IMG/VR virus record: IMGVR_UViG_3300028832_000095
Location: 32,001 to 96,000 of that record
Source: a virus
Taxonomy: Duplodnaviria; Caudoviricetes
DNA length: 64,000 nt
Direction: 5' to 3' (one strand)
Shown: positions 11,270-39,883 of the stretch, in pieces
Position numbering within the stretch: position 1 is the stretch's first letter
How the letters are laid out: every line of letters starts with the position of its first letter
Notes under the pieces: generated by a model
Told to the model about the DNA's origin: nothing
The model's input: the letters and a program-made list of their open reading frames with translations, nothing else
Databases searched by the model: none
Made by a program: the position numbers and the translations under genes

Positions 11270-12160
11270 ATGAGAACAGCTACATGGTCTACTATCGGAA
11301 CGAAGGTTGATACTTGTGCGGATATTGCACAGGTACTTGAAAAGTCTGGACTGAACTACAAGGTTAGCAAATCCAAGATTCAGTTGCCGAACGGAATTGA
11401 GATTCCGGATCGTATGGCAACAGTAAAGGAAGACGGTTCTTATATCGGTGTTGTATCTAACGGATATGAGATTTGTCAGAACGAAGATGCCTTTGATTTT
11501 GCTAATAACATTGAGGGCATTGAATTTGAGAAAGCCGGAGAAACCGGAACTGGAATGGTCTACATTATCGGTAAACTTCCGGATGTTACAGTTCTTGGTG
11601 ATACCTTTACACCGCACCTGATTCTCCAGAACAGCCACAACGGAAGATATACTCTCAAAGCTACAATTTGTCCTCTTAGATTTGTATGTCAGAACCAGTT
11701 TTCCATTAGCTTCCGTAACATGAAAAACTCTGTGACAATCAGACATAGCAGACAGCTTGCATCTAAGATTGCACAGGCAAAACAGCTTCTTAACCAGACA
11801 GCATCGTATATGTCCGAATTCAAAGGAACTGCGGAAGATCTGGCAAGAATTAAAGTTTCTGACACTAATCTGTATCACATTGTAGATAAGTTCTTTGATA
11901 TGGCAAATGAGGAAATGACAGAAAGACAGCGGCGCGAAGTTGAAGAAAGAAGAAGTGCTTTCTTTAAGTGTTACAATGCCGACGATAATCAGAACTTCCT
12001 CGGAACAGGTTGGGGTATTGCAAATGCAATGTCCGATTATGTAACTCACAGAAACCGGAAACAGACAGCAGGAGTTAATGACACAAGATTTCTTGATGTT
12101 ACATTCGATAATATGATTATGCCGAAACTGATTCAGGCTGTCAAGGAGGTAGCCAGATGA
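11270..12160 (+). CDS. DUF932/DUF945-family phage protein
   Basis: SGLNYKV, IGVVSNGYEICQNEDAFDF, NSHNG, PLRFVCQNQ and GTGWGIANAMSDYVTH motifs; GGAGG RBS. Confidence 0.8.
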   Translation: MRTATWSTIGTKVDTCADIAQVLEKSGLNYKVSKSKIQLPNGIEIPDRMATVKEDGSYIGVVSNGYEICQNEDAFDFANNIEGIEFEKAGETGTGMVYIIGKLPDVTVLGDTFTPHLILQNSHNGRYTLKATICPLRFVCQNQFSISFRNMKNSVTIRHSRQLASKIAQAKQLLNQTASYMSEFKGTAEDLARIKVSDTNLYHIVDKFFDMANEEMTERQRREVEERRSAFFKCYNADDNQNFLGTGWGIANAMSDYVTHRNRKQTAGVNDTRFLDVTFDNMIMPKLIQAVKEVAR

Positions 12161-12193
12161 GTTAGTTAAAAAATAAAAATTATCAAAACCCTC

Positions 12194-12222
12194 TTGACAA
12201 ATTATCAATTATATGTTATACT
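12194..12222 (+). promoter_or_regulatory. Sigma-A-type promoter
   Basis: TTGACA-17bp-TATACT with TG. Confidence 0.85.
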
Positions 12223-12267
12223 ATAATCAAAATAGGAAACATATAATATTTGTCAGGAGGGTTATGG

Positions 12268-14166
12268 TTGGTAGATATCAGAGTTAAAGATCATACTTTA
12301 TATGTTAAATCGGAGTATAATCAAAATATCGTTAAATTTATGCGATCAAGACCAGTTCGTAAATGGAACATAAATACTAGGCAATGGGAAATTCCGGAAC
12401 AAGAATTAGAAAATTTAATTCCGATATTAAATGGATTGGAGTATAAGATAAAATACGAGGAAGCTCCAAATCCAATAAAGGAAATACCAGAAACATATAA
12501 CTTCAAAACAAAGCCATTTGAACATCAAAAGGAAGCAATAGCTTATGGGTTAAAGCATAACAAGTTTCTTCTTGCTGATGAGCAAGGATGTGTTGACGGC
12601 GATATGGAAATATCATATAATCTGTCTGGATCATCACAAAAAGTTAAGCTGTCTGAATTTTACAAAACTTATCAGAAATCAAGAGTAAAAGATAAGTTTA
12701 AGGTCAGATGCCTGAAGAATAATATCTTTGGTCTGAATTCTGTTAAGAATGTTGTGTTTTCTGGAATCAAGGATGTTTACAGACTGTCAACTAATGATGG
12801 AAAATCCGTAAATGTAACATTCGATCATGAAATACTAACTGATAAAGGATTCAAGAGTTTATGTGATATTTCTGTTGGTGATACAATAATTACAAATGGC
12901 GAGGTCTTAACTTGTCCTATTTGCGGAACAACTGAAAACATTGTCACATACCCATATGCTAAGTTTTATGGATACTGCAAATCCTGTATGTACTCCCAAA
13001 GAGATGGAAAAAAGTATAATGGTGATGAGATTGGTCGTGTTGTTGGAAAAGACGGATATATCTTCCTATATGGTAAAAAATACAGAAAACATCCTAGATA
13101 CACTCCGAATGGGATACCAGAACACGTTGTTGTGGCAGAAGAGAAGATTGGTAGAATGTTAAGAGATGATGAAGTTGTGCATCATATAAATAGATGTGTT
13201 TCTGATAAATCACCAGATAATCTAATGGTTCTAACAAAACAAGAACATTATCTAATACATGATCCAGAAACGCACTTTCATAGAGATTATGTTCATTCTT
13301 CTGGTTCAACAGTTGTTGTTATTCCAAAAAAATCTACTGTATCTTCTATTGAGTATATTGGAAAAAAGGAAACATATGATATAGTCATGGAAGATCCGTA
13401 TCGTAATTTTGTTGCGAATAAGATAGTTGTTCATAATTGCGGAAAATCAAAAACAGTTCTCGATCTTGCTTGTATATTCAAACAGGAAAGAAAGTATAAG
13501 CACGTTTTAATCATCACTTGTGTAAACTCAATTAAATATAATTGGCGAAATGAAGTTCAAAAACATACAAATGAAAACGGATATATTTTAGGAACAAAGA
13601 TAACTAAAAAAGGAACAGAGTATATAGGTTCTAACGAAGATAGATTGGCAGATATACAAAGGATTGAAACAAATCCAAATTATTTCATAATTACTAATAT
13701 TGAAACTCTTAGATATAACAAGAAGATAGAAATACCCTGTAAAACAAAGAAAAATGGGGTTCAGAGGTATAAGAAAAAGACAATATTTCCAATTGTTGAG
13801 GAGTTGCAGAAGCAGTTAAAAAATGGAAATATCTCAATGATTATCGTTGATGAAATCCATCGGTGTTTGGCTCCGGAAACAAAAATAAAGACGGATAGTG
13901 GATATGTTGAAATCCAAGAAATTTTTAACAATAGAAATTATATGGTTGCTACACTGTGTTCTGATGGGGATATTGAATATGTAAAACCTAGTAACTATTT
14001 TGTAAATCCTGTTTTTGATAATATGATAAGATTATCATTTTTAACAGACGAAGGAGAAGAAAAAGAAATTGTATGTACCAAAGATCATAGATTTTTAACT
14101 AAAAATAGAGGTTATGTGTCTGCGGAAGATATAACAGAACAAGATGAGGTGGTTTGTCTTGATTAA
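12268..14166 (+). CDS. SNF2-family helicase, N-terminal half (cis intein inside; ends in an N-split intein)
   Basis: HARP-like N-terminus, PFEHQKEA Q motif, Walker A ADEQG|CGKS, Walker B IVDEIHR; AGGAGG then TTG at 12268. Confidence 0.85.
   Translation: MVDIRVKDHTLYVKSEYNQNIVKFMRSRPVRKWNINTRQWEIPEQELENLIPILNGLEYKIKYEEAPNPIKEIPETYNFKTKPFEHQKEAIAYGLKHNKFLLADEQGCVDGDMEISYNLSGSSQKVKLSEFYKTYQKSRVKDKFKVRCLKNNIFGLNSVKNVVFSGIKDVYRLSTNDGKSVNVTFDHEILTDKGFKSLCDISVGDTIITNGEVLTCPICGTTENIVTYPYAKFYGYCKSCMYSQRDGKKYNGDEIGRVVGKDGYIFLYGKKYRKHPRYTPNGIPEHVVVAEEKIGRMLRDDEVVHHINRCVSDKSPDNLMVLTKQEHYLIHDPETHFHRDYVHSSGSTVVVIPKKSTVSSIEYIGKKETYDIVMEDPYRNFVANKIVVHNCGKSKTVLDLACIFKQERKYKHVLIITCVNSIKYNWRNEVQKHTNENGYILGTKITKKGTEYIGSNEDRLADIQRIETNPNYFIITNIETLRYNKKIEIPCKTKKNGVQRYKKKTIFPIVEELQKQLKNGNISMIIVDEIHRCLAPETKIKTDSGYVEIQEIFNNRNYMVATLCSDGDIEYVKPSNYFVNPVFDNMIRLSFLTDEGEEKEIVCTKDHRFLTKNRGYVSAEDITEQDEVVCLD
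12589..13437 (+). mobile_element. Cis-splicing intein (283 aa) with HNH homing endonuclease, inserted in the helicase Walker A
   Basis: Starts CVDGD, block B VTFDHEILT, ends VVHN followed by Cys; internal EHVVVAEEKIGR..EVVHHIN..DNL HNH motif. Confidence 0.9.
13864..14163 (+). mobile_element. N-terminal half of a split intein (100 aa)
   Basis: CLAPETKIKT block A immediately after DEIHR; CTKDHRFLT block B; then stop TAA. Confidence 0.85.
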
Positions 14167-14335
14167 GATATGTAAGCATTGTGGAAATGAATTTATGTCT
14201 GATACAGATAGGATGTATTGTAGTGCAAAATGTCAACATAAGTCTATGGAAACACATCCGGATTGTTACAATAAAAAATGCTTGTTTTGCGGAAAACCAA
14301 TATCTTATAGGAGGGCATCTTGTGGTAGAATCTAA
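14144..14335 (+). pseudogene. Small Cys-rich zinc-finger ORF between the split-intein halves, probably a homing-endonuclease remnant
   Basis: CKHC..YCSAKC..CLFC motifs; overlaps the N-intein stop; no nuclease domain visible. Confidence 0.55.
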
Positions 14336-14370
14336 AGAACAATTCTTTGTTTGTTGGAGGAATGATAGAA

Positions 14371-15462
14371 ATGAAATTAATAAAAAAAGAGGTAATTGAA
14401 TCAACAGGAATTGCATATGATATTGAGATACCTGAAACACATAATTATATTGTTGATGGAGGAATAGTATCACATAATTGTAAAGACCCAAACAGTCTTC
14501 AAGGCAGATCATTACTAGCATTAGACTGTGATAATAAAATAGCAATGACAGGAACTCCTGTTATGAATAATCCAATAGATTTGTATGAAATTCTATATTG
14601 GCTTGGTTATGAAAATCACAGCTTGTTTGCTTTTAGAAACCATTATTGTATTATGGGAGGTTTTGGAGATCATCAAATAGTAGGATATAAAAATCTACCG
14701 GAGTTACAGTCTGTTGTAGATAAGTGTATGCTTAGACGATTAAAAGAGGATGTATTGGATCTCCCTGAAAAAATCTATATTGACGATTTTGTTGAAATGA
14801 CAAAACCTCAAATAAAGATATATGAAGAAGTTCTCGATAGTATTATGTCTGAAATAGACAGAATAAAATTAAGTCCTAATCCATTAACAATGCTTATAAG
14901 ACTTAGACAAGTTACAGGAAATCCTTCATTACTTAGTTCTAAAATAAAGGATAATCCAAAACTTGATAGATTATTGGAAATCGTAGAAGATGTGGTAGGG
15001 AGTGGGGAAAAATGTATAGTATTTAGCAACTGGACTAATGTTATCAATCCAGCTTATGAATTACTTAAATCAAAAGGATTTGATCCTGCATTATATACAG
15101 GTGAAAATAGTAAAGATAGAGAGGCAGAAAAACAAAGGTTTAAGACGGACACAAAATGTAAAGTTATTCTTGGAACCATAGATGCTATGGGAACAGGCTT
15201 AACTCTAACAGAAGCCACAACTTGTATATTCCTAGATGAACCTTGGAACAGGGCAAAAAAAGATCAATGTGAAGACAGAATACATAGAATCGGAACAAAG
15301 AAAAAACCAAACATAATAACGCTAATGTGCAAAGGAACCATAGATGAAAAAATACATAACATCGTATACAGAAAAGGGAAGATAGCGGATATTATAATAG
15401 ATAGGGAAGAAGATATTTTTAAGAATCCTAAATTACTAAATTATCTATTATCACAAACTTAA
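14371..15462 (+). CDS. SNF2-family helicase, C-terminal half, starting with a 36-aa C-split intein
   Basis: GGAGG at 14356-14360, ATG 14371; MKLIKK..YDIEIPETHNYIV..SHN|CKD; then MTGTPVMN, LRRLKEDVLDLPEK, GTGLTL and QCEDRIHRIG motifs. Confidence 0.85.
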   Translation: MKLIKKEVIESTGIAYDIEIPETHNYIVDGGIVSHNCKDPNSLQGRSLLALDCDNKIAMTGTPVMNNPIDLYEILYWLGYENHSLFAFRNHYCIMGGFGDHQIVGYKNLPELQSVVDKCMLRRLKEDVLDLPEKIYIDDFVEMTKPQIKIYEEVLDSIMSEIDRIKLSPNPLTMLIRLRQVTGNPSLLSSKIKDNPKLDRLLEIVEDVVGSGEKCIVFSNWTNVINPAYELLKSKGFDPALYTGENSKDREAEKQRFKTDTKCKVILGTIDAMGTGLTLTEATTCIFLDEPWNRAKKDQCEDRIHRIGTKKKPNIITLMCKGTIDEKIHNIVYRKGKIADIIIDREEDIFKNPKLLNYLLSQT

Positions 15463-15483
15463 TTAAAAATGGAGGAATAAAGA

Positions 15484-15789
15484 ATGAGTAAAAATGAGAA
15501 GAATCTAACAGCATACCAGGTATGCAATGAATTGAATGTGAGTGTCAAAACATTAACAAATTGGTATAAATGGTATAATGATCCGTCTTTTGAAAAACCA
15601 AATAATATGCCAGCTCTACCGAAGTATGAGCAATCACATGAAAAAGGACCTAGATATTGGAGTAAAGAAGATATTAAAACTCTAAAAGTATTTAAGGAAT
15701 CACTTCCAAGAGGTAGAAATGGTATTATGGGAGAATTCAATAAGCGTTATTGGTCTACAAAGGAAAAGGAGAATAACAATGAAGGATGA
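15484..15789 (+). CDS. MerR-like HTH DNA-binding protein
   Basis: LTAYQVCNELNVSVKTLTNWYK...RYWSKEDI. Confidence 0.7.
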   Translation: MSKNEKNLTAYQVCNELNVSVKTLTNWYKWYNDPSFEKPNNMPALPKYEQSHEKGPRYWSKEDIKTLKVFKESLPRGRNGIMGEFNKRYWSTKEKENNNEG

Positions 15790-38054: not shown

Positions 38055-38127
38055 GTACCAGTAGCTCAGTTGGTAGAGCATATCCCTTTTAAGGATAGGG
38101 TCAAGGGTTCAAACCCCTTCTGGTACA
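38055..38127 (+). tRNA. tRNA-Lys(UUU)
   Basis: Acceptor gtaccag/ctggtac; anticodon arm tatcc-ctTTTaa-ggata; TTC loop. Confidence 0.92.
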
Positions 38128-38134
38128 TTTTGAT

Positions 38135-38222
38135 GGATCCTTAGCTCAACAGGTTAGAGCCAGCGTCTTATAAACACTAGGCCCTTACAAGGTATATCTG
38201 GGTTCGAGTCCCAGAGGATCCA
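38135..38222 (+). tRNA. tRNA with UAU anticodon (Ile by anticodon) and a long variable region
   Basis: ggatcct/aggatcc; agcgt-ctTATaa-acact; 19-nt variable region; ctggg-ttcgagt-cccag. Confidence 0.8.
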
Positions 38223-38229
38223 CTCAAAT

Positions 38230-38302
38230 TACTCCGTGGTGAAGTGGTAAACACATACGGCTTTGACCCGTACATTCGTTGGTTCAAATCCAACCGGAGT
38301 AA
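38230..38302 (+). tRNA. tRNA-Gln(UUG)
   Basis: tactccg/cggagta; tacgg-ctTTGac-ccgta. Confidence 0.9.
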
Positions 38303-38309
38303 TTCTTTT

Positions 38310-38384
38310 CGGAATGTAGATCAGTTTGGCTAGATCGCCACATTTGGGATGTGGAAGTCGCAGGTTCAAATCCTGTCATTCCGA
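38310..38384 (+). tRNA. tRNA-Pro(UGG)
   Basis: cggaatg/cattccg; ccaca-ttTGGga-tgtgg. Confidence 0.92.
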
Positions 38385-38386
38385 TT

Positions 38387-38527
38387 ATGTAATATAAGTG
38401 CTCCGGTTTTATACTACCTTGACGCTAGATAGAGGTGGAGGAAGGTGTAACAGAGTTACTTAAAGCTATTGCCTTTGAAAATCCAAGCAGGAGTTAAATG
38501 GAGTTTGATGAACAGCTTATATTATAT
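38387..38527 (+). ncRNA. Putative structured ncRNA between tRNA-Pro and tRNA-Leu
   Basis: 13-bp closing stem atgtaatataagt/gcttatattatat; internal ctcc/ggag and ctacct/aggtgg helices. Confidence 0.45.
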
Positions 38528-38529
38528 AT

Positions 38530-38615
38530 GCTACTGTGATGGAATGGCAGACATGAAAGACTTAAAATCTTTTGCCGGATACGGTGTGCGGGTTCAAGTC
38601 CCGCCAGTAGCACCA
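38530..38615 (+). tRNA. tRNA-Leu(UAA)
   Basis: gctactg/cagtagc plus ACCA; aaaga-ctTAAaa-tcttt; variable arm. Confidence 0.92.
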
Positions 38616-38685
38616 ATCCTCAAATTGTTGAGGATTATGTCATTTTCGTTTTGTTGTCTCCTTTTTTACTAATCTTATCTTTTTA

Positions 38686-38874
38686 TTGTGGGAAAGTCAG
38701 CAGTACAAGAAACTATGTTTTAAAAAGAGTGCATTCTTCTTTTACATAGTTTATGATTTCTCCTGTTTCCGGATCAATCATACTCTTGTAAATTGAATAT
38801 TTATAAGTCGGATTTCCTGTCTCCATTAAAATCTATTGATTTTTAATATTCACGAAATACTGACTTTCCCGCAA
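38686..38874 (+). ncRNA. Putative multibranched ncRNA with two CCUGUYUCC loops
   Basis: 15-bp closing stem ttgtgggaaagtcag/ctgactttcccgcaa; inner helices tacaaga/tcttgta, aaactatgt/acatagttt, atgatt/aatcat, gaatatt/aatattc. Confidence 0.6.
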
Positions 38875-38890
38875 ACCTTATTTTCAGAAA

Positions 38891-39316
38891 GTGGTGTTGA
38901 AAGTGATACAACAAGAATCGTTACAAATTCCATGTGAAGGAATATTTTGGGTAATAGATAATTGCTTAGTCTATTTTGCAGATAAGGTAAATCCAAAAGA
39001 TCCTTATGATTCAACAGATCTTCTACATAAAGATACATGGAGAGAAATAAAAGACGAATATCTTGTAGACGGAAAACAGGTTTCCTTTGATTATTTTCCT
39101 CGTGGAAGAGTTGAAACATTAGTAATTCAAGATACTGACGGAACCTTAGATCACTATGAAGCGACTATATATTTAGATAAATGTATCAACAATAAAGAAT
39201 TGATCTCGGAGGTTATAGATACGTTTAGACTATACCTTCCAAATGTGAAGGTTGAAAATGGAGGTCAGTTATTTATAGATGGTAGTCACTATACTTGTAA
39301 TAAGTGTAGAAAATGA
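38891..39316 (+). CDS. Hypothetical phage protein within the tRNA island
   Basis: GIFW..H..TW..YFPRGRV..HY.C..C pattern. Confidence 0.65.
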   Translation: MVLKVIQQESLQIPCEGIFWVIDNCLVYFADKVNPKDPYDSTDLLHKDTWREIKDEYLVDGKQVSFDYFPRGRVETLVIQDTDGTLDHYEATIYLDKCINNKELISEVIDTFRLYLPNVKVENGGQLFIDGSHYTCNKCRK

Positions 39317-39319
39317 TAG

Positions 39320-39437
39320 GGAATCTTCGTTTAAAAGTGATTAGCAACCAAAAAGAAAGACTGAATTATCAGTTTAGTTAATCCGAAGACAGTTCCTGAT
39401 CAGAACTATGTAAGGTACAAACTTACAGATTCCACCA
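39320..39437 (+). ncRNA. tRNA-like RNA (118 nt) with CCA end and greatly enlarged D-arm region
   Basis: ggaatct/agattcc-A-CCA acceptor; gtaag-gtacaaa-cttac T-like arm; agttc-ctGATca-gaact anticodon-like arm. Confidence 0.7.
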
Positions 39438-39443
39438 ATATTT

Positions 39444-39516
39444 GCCGTGGTAGCATAAATGGATATGCAACATCCTTCTAAGATGTCAGATACGGGTTCG
39501 AGTCCTGTCCACGGTA
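39444..39516 (+). tRNA. tRNA-Arg(UCU)
   Basis: gccgtgg/ccacggt; acatc-ctTCTaa-gatgt. Confidence 0.88.
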
Positions 39517-39522
39517 TGTTAT

Positions 39523-39676
39523 GTAGGAGTGGCGCAAGAGGTAAGACACACCGGATATAGAATCCGGTGGAAGAATTAAACATTGGTGAGTTCGACTATA
39601 ACCTAGGATGATGTCAGAACAAAATGTCCCTTGTTTATGATATCCTGTGTAGGTTCGAATCCTACCTCCTACACCA
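39523..39676 (+). tRNA. tRNA-Leu(UAG)-like RNA with an 81-nt variable-region insert (154 nt)
   Basis: gtaggag/ctcctac-A-CCA; ccgga-taTAGaa-tccgg; gtagg-ttcgaat-cctac; insert at 39568-39648. Confidence 0.7.
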
Positions 39677-39804
39677 ATAAGTCCAGACCCAAACTCCGTA
39701 GAACAATATGGGGTTTAAACGGGGAAAAATAAGTGATTAGCTTATGGAGAAAGGTGGACGCACTTGATGACGGTTTGCAAGGGCTTTACGTCATCCACAA
39801 ATAT

Positions 39805-39877
39805 TCCCTGTTAGATCAATCGGTAGATCAACTGACTGTTAATCAGTGGGTTGCTGGTTCAAGTCCAGCACAGGGAG
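39805..39877 (+). tRNA. tRNA-Asn(GUU)
   Basis: tccctgt/acaggga; actga-ctGTTaa-tcagt. Confidence 0.92.
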
Positions 39878-39883
39878 TTCAGA

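Follow-up and report, generated by a model that had tools for sequence, protein, structure and literature searches.

A split intein predicted to rejoin the halves of a fractured SNF2 helicase in a bovine-gut phage

Split inteins and fractured genes

The cyanobacterial DnaE intein (Npu, Ssp) is a naturally split class-1 intein with cysteines at its first position (Cys1) and directly after its last (Cys+1), which rebuilds an essential DNA enzyme by trans-splicing and whose halves carry strong opposite charges. NrdJ-1 is also naturally split, at about residue 105. An SNF2-family protein hosts the Snf2 intein of Deinococcus radiodurans, on which Brace and colleagues are said to have worked in 2010 and which is reportedly contiguous and of class 3; the intein described here has the class-1 residues and is split. 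Fifteen bacterial HepA/SNF2 inteins have been counted, none of them described as split in the accessible text of Novikova et al. (2016; PMC4760082).

The fractured genes named in the accessible part of Dassa et al. (2009; Dassa, London, Stoddard, Schueler-Furman and Pietrokovski, NAR 37:2560, PMC2677866) are gp41, IMPDH, DnaE, NrdA, NrdJ, ligase and terminase. The locus described here resembles them in that a phage DNA-metabolism gene is affected and in that the endonuclease, here a remnant, would belong to the Vsr-like family predicted there, and in the model of these authors the cassette provides a stop codon for the upstream half and a Met codon for the downstream half, an arrangement also seen at the present locus. 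The gp41-7 locus also has no endonuclease, and the DnaE halves, unlike those described here, lie at separate loci without one (Dassa et al. 2009, PMC2677866). Unlike the hosts named in that text, the present gene encodes an SNF2 helicase, carries its insertion directly after the DExH box and retains a half-deleted endonuclease; a further difference is that contiguous, split-with-endonuclease and intein-less alleles all occur in the close phage lineage. By its sequence the gene nevertheless fits the fractured-gene type that Dassa et al. (2009) defined. The original prediction, made from the DNA alone, had suggested SNF2 as a new host for a split intein; SNF2 is absent from the hosts in the available part of Dassa et al. 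(2009), and literature searches turned up no split SNF2 intein. The fractured-gene layout has been known since 2009, and as far as these searches and that text reach, the SNF2 host gene and the site after DExH would be new. The reading developed below, which is considered likely to be correct, is that the fractured SNF2 helicase is rejoined by a trans-splicing split intein whose endonuclease was later deleted.

The divided helicase gene

The window, a stretch of 64,000 nucleotides, is part of a bovine-gut phage genome of roughly 202 kb (a 201,895-bp record with an estimated completeness of 84%), and all features described here lie on its plus strand. ORF1 (12250..14166) is the N-terminal half gene; it ends with a TAA at 14164-14166, and its start codon is uncertain because relatives begin six codons later. 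It comprises extein 1 (aa 1-113), intein 1 (aa 114-397), extein 2 (aa 398-538) and the N-intein (aa 539-638). The final five residues of the N-extein form helicase motif II, DEIHR (13849..13863), where DEIH occupies residues 534-537 and R538 is the -1 residue. The C-extein in ORF2 (14479..15462) opens with the +1 Cys (14479-14481) and continues through the remaining SNF2 domain and Helicase_C to the stop codon (Pfam SNF2-rel_dom E 2.8e-16, Helicase_C E 2.9e-16). SNF2-rel_dom was matched in both halves and Helicase_C in ORF2, and motifs I and II are present, which places the protein among the SNF2-family helicases.

ORF1 and ORF2 share a reading frame and are separated by ten in-frame stop codons of all three kinds, so that no single codon reassignment could join them, and no suppressor tRNA was found among the seven tRNAs in the window. 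The N- and C-intein are carried on separate ORFs at a common locus and in a common orientation, each fused in frame to a part of the host protein. Co-transcription of the two halves is assumed, as a scan for promoters and terminators did no better than on shuffled sequences.

The helicase gene also holds a second intein, with an HNH endonuclease domain and located in the P-loop, that was absent from the original account. This contiguous intein 1 (12589..13440) lies inside Walker A, flanked by the Gly of ...DEQG and by a Cys standing in for the Leu of GLGKT, and matches Pfam Intein_splicing (E 3.4e-16, residues 128-396) and HNH_3 (E 2.6e-8, residues 292-333). A BLASTP alignment with the unbroken helicase gp33 of phage phiCTP1 breaks at ORF1 residues 126/127, at intein 1, and the near-identical relative P0279 is without the insertion and reads GLGKSK. 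Intein 1 would have to cis-splice from the N-half for a working helicase to form and, as the gene carries two inteins, an active enzyme would need two successful splicing events.

The residues flanking the split can be compared with helicases that are not interrupted. gp33 of phiCTP1 reads DEIHK followed by CKNP across the insertion site, with a native Cys at that position; it is colinear with ORF1 as far as DEIH(R/K)C and with ORF2 from H-N-C-K, with nothing missing, and its residues 247-569 are 48% identical to the C-extein. This agrees with the expectation that joining the halves would restore DEIHR-CKDPNS. The 120 best relatives of ORF2 include unbroken orthologues of 543-616 aa, most of which read DE.H(K/R) and then CK(D/N). 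Identity to ORF2 reaches 86% among such orthologues (P0153, 583 aa), and they have the native +1 Cys.

The two intein halves

The predicted boundaries of the split intein, 13864-14481, proved exact: the Cys1 codon (ORF1 residue 539) starts at 13864, and the codon for the +1 Cys in ORF2 finishes at 14481. The 100-aa N-intein (13864..14163; Cys1 at 13864-13866) closes ORF1 after DEIHR, as had been proposed, and scores 49.5 bits with TIGR01445 (intein_Nterm; cut-off 24.5, E 6.2e-13), the best-matching part being residues 539-617. Its block B reads T72-K-D-H75, with Thr72 at 14077-14079 and His75 at 14086-14088, and Cys1 and the block B T..H are retained in at least 90% of a set of 26 related N-inteins, one per 50%-identity cluster.

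ORF2 likewise opens as foreseen, with a GGAGG ribosome-binding site of its own (14356..14360; 10 nt before the ATG at 14371) and a 36-aa C-intein (14371..14478) followed by Cys. The C-intein scores 31.4 bits with TIGR01443 (intein_Cterm; cut-off 15.6, E 1.5e-7) over residues 15-37, and with Pfam Intein_splicing it stays below threshold (17.6 against 35.8 bits). Solved mini-inteins align with it in blocks F and G, among them the Pho RadA mini-intein with its C-terminal 30 residues (E 2.4e-4); the C-intein has Asp17 and His24 in block F and His35 and Asn36 (14476-14478) in block G. In 19 split C-halves that are 53-70% identical, Y16, D17, E19, N25, Y26, H35, N36 and C37 are invariant (19/19) and H24 is retained in at least 90%. 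The class-1 set is thereby complete (Cys1, T72..H75, D17, H24, H35, N36 and C+1), and the sequence evidence supports a naturally split class-1 intein that would interrupt the SNF2 helicase right after motif II.

The nearest solved chain to the N-intein is NrdJ-1 (PDB 8ubs, 9omb), a distant similarity and the single PDB match at E <= 0.01 (8ubs, E 2.6e-7, query 15-98 against chain 22-106). The N-intein ends within a few residues of the aligned NrdJ-1 chain position ~108. According to the accessible text of Dassa et al. (2009), NrdJ-1 too is a natural split intein of a fractured gene, with an acidic N-half; it differs in its host, a ribonucleotide reductase, and in a positive C-half, compared with a net charge of -3 in the window.

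The halves had been described as an acidic N-half and a Lys-rich start of the C-half, in analogy to DnaE and gp41. The first part holds, as the N-intein has a net charge of -10 and a pI of 4.4. The second does not extend beyond the first six residues, to which the Lys-richness of the C-intein (net -3, pI 5.0) is confined. The analogy itself is weak: the N-inteins of gp41-1 and gp41-8 are positive, that is of the opposite polarity, in the available part of Dassa et al. (2009, PMC2677866), and the charge complementarity that drives association in the DnaE type is absent from the window halves. With net charges of -10 and -3 the halves could be suspected of not splicing at all, the intein pieces serving as a non-covalent clasp of a two-piece helicase or the helicase being inactive. 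This is unlikely, since a mere clasp would not need the class-1 residues, all of which are present and have been kept over the 19 C-halves and 26 N-inteins despite their low identity. Moreover, the near-identical contiguous P0279 can yield a helicase only by cis-splicing with the same residues, and the record contains no SNF2 gene apart from the one in the window. Selection on helicase function is plausible because the sole SNF2-domain matches across the 201,895 bp are the two halves of this gene, although a second helicase gene may lie outside a record that is about 84% complete.

Remnant of a homing endonuclease

Between the halves lies the short out-of-frame Cys-rich ORF that the original prediction had noted, a stub of 63 aa with 8 Cys (14144..14335) which is in another frame and has its ATG within the final codons of the N-intein. 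At 90% identity it clusters with two intact proteins, P0284 and P0285 (296 and 301 aa), and over the N-terminal 58 aa of the L008 endonuclease it shows 43% identity (E 7e-10). Read in one frame, 14144-14365 gives the equivalent of P0285 residues 1-63, a TAA (14333) and then the final nine residues; the translation of 14336-14365 matches the C-terminus of P0284 and P0285. The segment 14336..14365 is the surviving 3' end of the deleted endonuclease gene, nine codons plus the TGA that share the frame of the stub, and it carries the ribosome-binding site of the C-half. The earlier suggestion of a decayed endonuclease can in this way be specified as a 228-codon in-frame deletion.

P0285 contains a DUF559 domain (E 2.5e-12), a family that we take to be equivalent to the Vsr-like family. 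PF04480, the DUF559 nuclease domain, is present in the relatives P0285, L008, L016 and L078, with no match in the stub and none across the 201,895-bp record; the stub has no curated family above cut-off and only sub-threshold matches to Pfam zinc ribbons. Judged by these comparisons, the Cys-rich ORF is the remnant of a DUF559/Vsr-like homing endonuclease and no longer itself belongs to that family.

In the stub the ATG and one full CxxC...CSxxC ribbon are preserved, and the single difference that contig X3 (described below) has within it, 14281 C>T, reads as synonymous. On these grounds the stub might have been retained as a small protein that binds DNA or RNA, perhaps to recognise the homing site or to tune C-half translation, a role compatible with the splicing account. 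Such retention is quite improbable, given that the junction stop halves the second ribbon, that no curated family is matched above cut-off and that the last nine codons of the old gene are still in frame, as in a fresh deletion. The stub furthermore differs from the first 63 residues of the intact P0285 at only 5 positions, which leaves no time for selection on it. A remnant left by an evolutionarily recent deletion is what the sequences indicate and, the deletion being recent, the split allele of the window would have been little tested by selection.

Alleles of the insertion site in related phages

In 80 related viral loci the site is without an intein in 72, holds a contiguous mini-intein in two, and in the remaining six has an ORF of 224-336 aa between the halves, with zinc ribbons and DUF559 (E 3e-13 to 1e-8). 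P0279 matches ORF2 at 98.9% identity over 360 aa, and in it the N- and C-intein sequences of the window are joined by an 8-residue linker into a single contiguous mini-intein; in the independent contig X4 (24,211 nt) position 14146 is joined to 14393 via 24 other letters; the N- and C-intein accordingly read as halves of one intein. Split alleles with an intact endonuclease are represented by P0275 (N-half), P0284 (endonuclease) and P0280 (C-half), whose location on one contig was deduced from the equal length of 12,138 nt.

Since contiguous alleles exist in public data (P0279 and the X4 contig), the genome could in reality have one contiguous intein ORF, with stop, stub and restart produced by mis-assembly or as a strain chimera; the best match to the window, X1 (133,835 nt, identical), may moreover be its own source. 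The comparison with four runs, all of them assembled contigs, makes such an artefact extremely improbable. X4 has 11 and 13 further differences from the window on the two flanks and hence stems from a different strain, so that the contiguous allele, which the original prediction had singled out as the outcome to check for, does exist but in another strain. X3, which comes from a different sample and a different study, runs through the deletion junction and the restart (14226-14556) and shows 2 differences, and an identical 63-aa stub is found on another JGI contig. N-halves from Logan, JGI and ENA assemblies, with an N-intein that is ~93% identical, share one stop position, and the split point is unchanged in diverged relatives. 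The stretch was found in no RNA run.

Closely related phages thus present four states of the site: intein-less, contiguous mini-intein, split with intact endonuclease, and split with freshly deleted endonuclease. As to its mobility, on a tree of 111 C-exteins the presence of the intein changes at least 13 times, 10 of these changes being forced by starred branches. The family to which the split intein belongs is common and widespread in metagenomic phages, and the present case is no isolated one. The four states illustrate directly the 2009 model, in which an endonuclease gene invades and breaks an intein, brings the stop, the ribosome-binding site and the start with it, and later decays to leave a stable split gene.

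Proposed origin and splicing mechanism

The comparison of alleles suggests that a mini-intein first occupied the DEIHR|C site, immediately behind helicase motif II. Its loop would then have been invaded by a free-standing DUF559/Vsr-like homing endonuclease gene, whose cassette would have brought the stop codon of the upstream half together with the GGAGG and Met codon of the downstream half. In the window phage the endonuclease would later have lost 228 codons in frame, leaving a 63-codon zinc-ribbon stub that ends at the junction TAA, and with this loss the copy in the window can presumably no longer home.

The splicing steps are deduced from the conserved residues. HINT is the fold common to inteins, and after separate translation of the two half proteins the 100-aa N-intein and the 36-aa C-intein would associate into one such domain. 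In the canonical class-1 reaction, with its four steps, an N-S acyl shift at Cys1 would be followed by trans-thioesterification to the +1 Cys, and cyclisation of Asn36 and an S-N shift would then create the DEIHR-CKDPNS peptide bond. The ligated product would be a helicase of 581 aa (113 + 141 + 327 aa), comparable to unbroken orthologues of 576-587 aa.

Significance

Split inteins are the main tools for the joining of proteins in cells and only a limited natural set has been characterised. The sizeable family to which the present intein belongs is still uncharacterised and could supply orthogonal pairs. A bolder and rather doubtful proposition is that the four alleles, including a split one with an active endonuclease, circulate in related ruminant-gut phages and that the split pair is fast, efficient and orthogonal to NrdJ-1, gp41-1 and DnaE. 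Were it true, the pair would be a new ligation tool, and P0279 would be a natural cis-splicing twin differing only by the 8-residue linker, a rare matched system for the cost of splitting. The locus adds a new host protein and a new insertion site, directly after the DExH box of an SNF2 helicase. Should splicing fail, the phage would be without a working SNF2 helicase, and for this reason the locus may serve as a test of how far a phage can depend on a domesticated selfish element.

The split helicase gene

The N-terminal half of the SNF2 helicase gene, ORF1 (12250-14166, plus strand), encodes 638 aa and ends in an N-intein (residues 539-638) that starts with CLAPET, contains TKDH, is closed by a TAA at 14164 and matches TIGR01445 with 49.5 bits (cut-off 24.5). 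The C-terminal half, ORF2, on the same strand, is open from stop to stop from 14347 and encodes 363 aa from its best start, the ATG at 14371; residues 1-36 form a C-intein (TIGR01443, 31.4 bits, cut-off 15.6) that ends in HN and is followed by Cys. A GGAGG ribosome-binding site (14356-14360, plus strand) lies 10 nt before this ATG. An alternative ATG at 14362 is just 1 nt from the GGAGG, and 14371 is the likely start because relatives open with a similar M-(A)-K-L-I-S-K-K. In these elements, from the GGAGG to CLAPET, TKDH and the C-intein with its Cys, the locus agrees with the original prediction of an intein-split SNF2 helicase.

ORF1 and ORF2 share a frame, yet they are separated by ten in-frame stops, with all three stop codons represented. 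Joining of the halves by read-through or an alternative genetic code was rejected on account of these stops and because no suppressor is found among the seven tRNA genes of the window. Rejoining of the message at the RNA level was rejected as well, since 13600-14700 contains no Rfam match at E <= 1 and the fold of 14140-14400 resembles that of its shuffles (z 0.61). The stops, together with the lack of both a suppressor tRNA and an RNA element, indicate that the split acts at the protein level. A promoter and terminator scan of 12000-15700 was uninformative (promoter-like sites: 22, shuffles 20.0; terminator-like sites: 1, shuffles 1.1) and placed no terminator-like site between the halves.

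The predicted spliced helicase

The unbroken SNF2-type helicase gp33 (570 aa) of Clostridium phage phiCTP1 serves as the reference for the junction. Pairwise BLASTP shows it to be colinear with the halves in three blocks, two on ORF1 (gp33 10-126 with ORF1 10-113, and 125-256 with 395-546) and one on ORF2 (247-569 with 35-360). In gp33 DEIHK is followed by CKNP exactly where the ORF1 extein ends in DEIHR and ORF2 restarts with CKDP. The motif DE.H(K/R)CK(D/N) occurs in most of the unbroken orthologues (543-616 aa) within the top 120 relatives of ORF2; as these have Cys at the junction, it is the host protein itself that supplies the +1 Cys. The exteins sum to 113 + 141 + 327 = 581 aa, and the top unbroken orthologue, the 583-aa metagenomic protein P0153, shares 86% identity with ORF2.

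Intein chemistry

The residues of a class-1 intein are complete: Cys1, T72 and H75 of block B, D17 and H24 of block F, H35-N36 of block G and Cys+1. The Deinococcus Snf2 intein, known as a contiguous element, is reportedly of class 3. Across 19 aligned split C-halves (53-70% identity to ORF2), Y16, D17, E19, N25, Y26, H35, N36 and C37 are invariant, and Cys1 and the T..H of block B are conserved in at least 90% of 26 N-inteins, each representing a 50%-identity cluster. The NrdJ-1 split intein is the only solved chain to match the N-intein at E <= 0.01 (8ubs, E 2.6e-7). The C-intein aligns with the C-terminal 30 residues of the Pho RadA mini-intein (E 2.4e-4). The original prediction had likened the charge pattern to that of DnaE and gp41. 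The N-intein is indeed acidic (net charge -10) and the C-intein starts with the basic MKLIKK, but this is its only basic stretch and its overall net charge is -3. Passages of Dassa et al. (2009; PMC2677866) report both charge polarities among split inteins.

Other inteins of the phage

A second, contiguous intein (intein 1; 12589-13440, plus strand, between ORF1 residues 113 and 398), with an HNH_3 domain and a CxxC...CxxC motif, had gone unmentioned in the original prediction. It is located inside the P-loop of the same helicase, where gp33 has GLGKT. The site is empty in the near-identical protein P0279 and contains a mini-intein without HNH in the more distant viral locus L007, and is thus polymorphic too. 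The record contains four intein N-terminal matches in all. Outside the window, the anaerobic ribonucleotide reductase NrdD of the phage (ATP-cone and NRDD; G000:C1:116282-116500, L004:358-3219) is also intein-bearing, and a 685-aa ORF (G000:C1:8067-8309, L002:127-2181), the end of which is overlapped by the next ORF, has Pfam matches to intein and PT-HINT only, in its C-terminal third.

The endonuclease remnant

Between the halves lies a short Cys-rich ORF, the stub (14144-14335, plus strand), which has no above-cut-off match to curated families. Its exact sequence shares a 90%-identity cluster with P0284 (296 aa) and P0285 (301 aa). P0285 contains a DUF559 nuclease domain (E 2.5e-12) and, along its whole length, has 44% identity with the endonuclease ORF that separates the halves at the viral locus L008. 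We take DUF559 to be the Vsr-like endonuclease family of Dassa-type fractured genes. Read in one frame, 14144-14365 consists of the counterpart of P0285 residues 1-63 (five differences), TAA, the nine C-terminal residues of P0285 and TGA; from this single-frame match to both ends of P0285 it follows that the window has lost 228 codons in frame, or 684 nt if colinear DNA is assumed. The decayed endonuclease that had been proposed between the halves is a remnant of a P0285-type DUF559 gene. The stop of the stub is formed by the deletion junction itself, and the stub lacks the C-terminal half of zinc ribbon 2, the third ribbon, the linker and the entire nuclease domain; a DUF559 domain is found nowhere in the 201,895-bp record. 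The deletion, the homology of each piece, the gene layout and the other alleles are direct observations. The remnant cannot cut DNA, and this copy is therefore stranded.

The terminal part of the former endonuclease gene contains the GGAGG of the C-half, and the endonuclease ATG overlaps the final N-intein codons. This is as predicted by the model in passages of Dassa et al. (2009; PMC2677866), in which an invading cassette brings an upstream stop and a downstream start.

Genome setting and closest alleles

The window spans bases 32001-96000 of the 201,895-bp IMG/VR virus record, the completeness of which is estimated at 84%. Its ORFs are tightly packed, and nearly all of those of at least 100 aa are on the plus strand. 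Seven tRNA genes are clustered at 38055-39878 (Lys-ttt, Ile-tat, Gln-ttg, Pro-tgg, Leu-taa, Arg-tct and Asn-gtt); the anticodons of all seven read A/T-ending codons, which might suit an AT-rich large phage. The DNA of the window occurs in bovine gut metagenome runs and, at smaller shares, in further gut runs, among them runs from sheep and goat; the runs listed for it include no RNA run. Contig depth jumps several-fold over a stretch of about 45 nt within 14537-14598 that encodes the conserved SNF2 TGTP..N motif; many unrelated contigs have loose ends on both sides there, so this short stretch is shared with other helicase genes in the metagenomes.

Among deposited phages, the helicases closest to the C-extein are those of Clostridium phage phiCTP1, Streptococcus phage Dp-1 and Bacillus phage G (48-51% identity). 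A blastn comparison of the locus with 50,697 phage records yielded three matches only, all to Clostridium phages, about 64% identical and within the C-extein. DEIHR plus the N-intein gave two weak tblastn matches in the phage records, both to Vibrio phages, and the one inspected is a contiguous 900-aa ORF; a close relative of the N-intein is therefore absent from deposited phages.

Much closer alleles come from metagenomes. P0279, a 707-aa member of the ORF2 cluster encoded on a contig of 38,186 nt, shares 98.9% identity with ORF2 across 360 aa, has no intein 1 and carries the same N- and C-intein sequences fused by an eight-residue linker into a contiguous mini-intein. In an independent contig of 24,211 nt, from run X4 of another study (2025), the sequence between 14146 and 14393 is replaced by 24 different letters, and the two flanks carry 11 and 13 differences from the window. 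The N-halves P0002 and P0272-P0275 (Logan, JGI, ENA) all have the same stop, P0002 being 93% identical over ORF1 residues 530-638. The N-half P0275, the intact endonuclease P0284 and the C-half P0280 are each recorded on a 12,138-nt contig, probably one and the same. Finally, a contig of run X3, from another sample and study, covers 14226-14556 with two differences and spans both the deletion junction and the restart, so that the deleted-endonuclease allele is real and occurs in at least two samples. The four runs examined are all assembled contigs, not raw reads.

Distribution across metagenomes

The N-intein by itself retrieved no relatives in a pattern search of viral contigs, and a word-index search with ORF1 residues 530-638 returned only the window's own protein and P0002. 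The exhaustive search of representatives with the N-intein gave 234 at E <= 0.001. Among the best 150 of these the N-intein is at the C-terminus in 89, a few of which could be gene calls cut at contig ends, and 23 of the 89 have DExH(x0-2)C directly before it. Judged by eye from flanking sequence, other hosts among the split-looking matches include terminase-like and ribonucleotide reductase-like proteins. In P0008, P0017 and P0021 the N-intein ORF has no stop and continues in frame into zinc-ribbon repeats and, in the latter two, into what by eye looks like a Vsr-like nuclease; these would be N-intein-endonuclease fusions without a C-intein in the same protein.

With ORF2, the word-index search gave 5730 matches among 8000 scored candidates. 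Of the 120 best relatives, 19 are proteins of 359-371 aa with the C-intein at the very start, and in P0164 and P0167 an upstream N-intein tail runs into the C-intein. The DEIHR site is free of an intein at 72 of 80 related viral-contig loci, while two (L007, L015) encode a contiguous mini-intein within a single ORF and six (L008, L016, L017, L037, L076, L078) are split with an endonuclease ORF of 224-336 aa between the halves; all three of the latter ORFs scanned against Pfam contain DUF559. On a FastTree phylogeny of 111 C-exteins, intein presence requires at least 13 changes, ten of them forced by well-supported branches, with P0167, which may be contiguous or truncated, scored as split. The tree omits 11 of the 120 listed relatives that are fragments or have no recognisable junction motif (P0164, P0210, P0217, P0233, P0240, P0242, P0244, P0246, P0247, P0248 and P0249). 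Some split genes are near-identical in their extein to unbroken ones, for example P0169 to P0220 and P0221. The element at the DEIHR site is mobile or frequently lost.

Proposed mechanism and relation to known systems

The two halves would be co-transcribed but translated separately, intein 1 would be removed from the N-half by cis-splicing, and the halves of the split intein would assemble and trans-splice by the class-1 route to give the 581-aa helicase; an active enzyme would require both splicing reactions. Apart from these two halves the 201,895-bp record has no SNF2-domain match, so the phage is probably dependent on the trans-splicing.

The locus belongs to the fractured-gene arrangement in passages of Dassa et al. 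(2009; PMC2677866), and NrdJ-1, an intein of that study, is the nearest in structure space. The present locus differs from those described there in host gene, insertion site and the half-deleted endonuclease. Inteins in SNF2 proteins are known as contiguous elements, as in the 15 bacterial HepA inteins covered in passages of Novikova et al. (2016; PMC4760082). A split intein in an SNF2 helicase is absent from the passages retrieved from PMC4760082, PMC2677866, PMC12350094, PMC7090010, PMC7886860, PMC7824862, PMC7765530 and PMC5874633, and a full-text literature search found no published description; subscription journals and supplementary tables lay outside that search, and the tables of Dassa 2009, Novikova 2016 and Pinto 2020 may name additional hosts. 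Overall, the original observation is confirmed, and its interpretation is supported once the charge argument is weakened and the second intein added.

Within this lineage the site exists in four states: intein-free, contiguous, split with an endonuclease and split with a freshly deleted endonuclease. The three intein-bearing forms fall into the same 90%-identity clusters and the intein-free form is 86% identical. It is this occurrence of four states of one site within a lineage that is the most distinctive point of the system.
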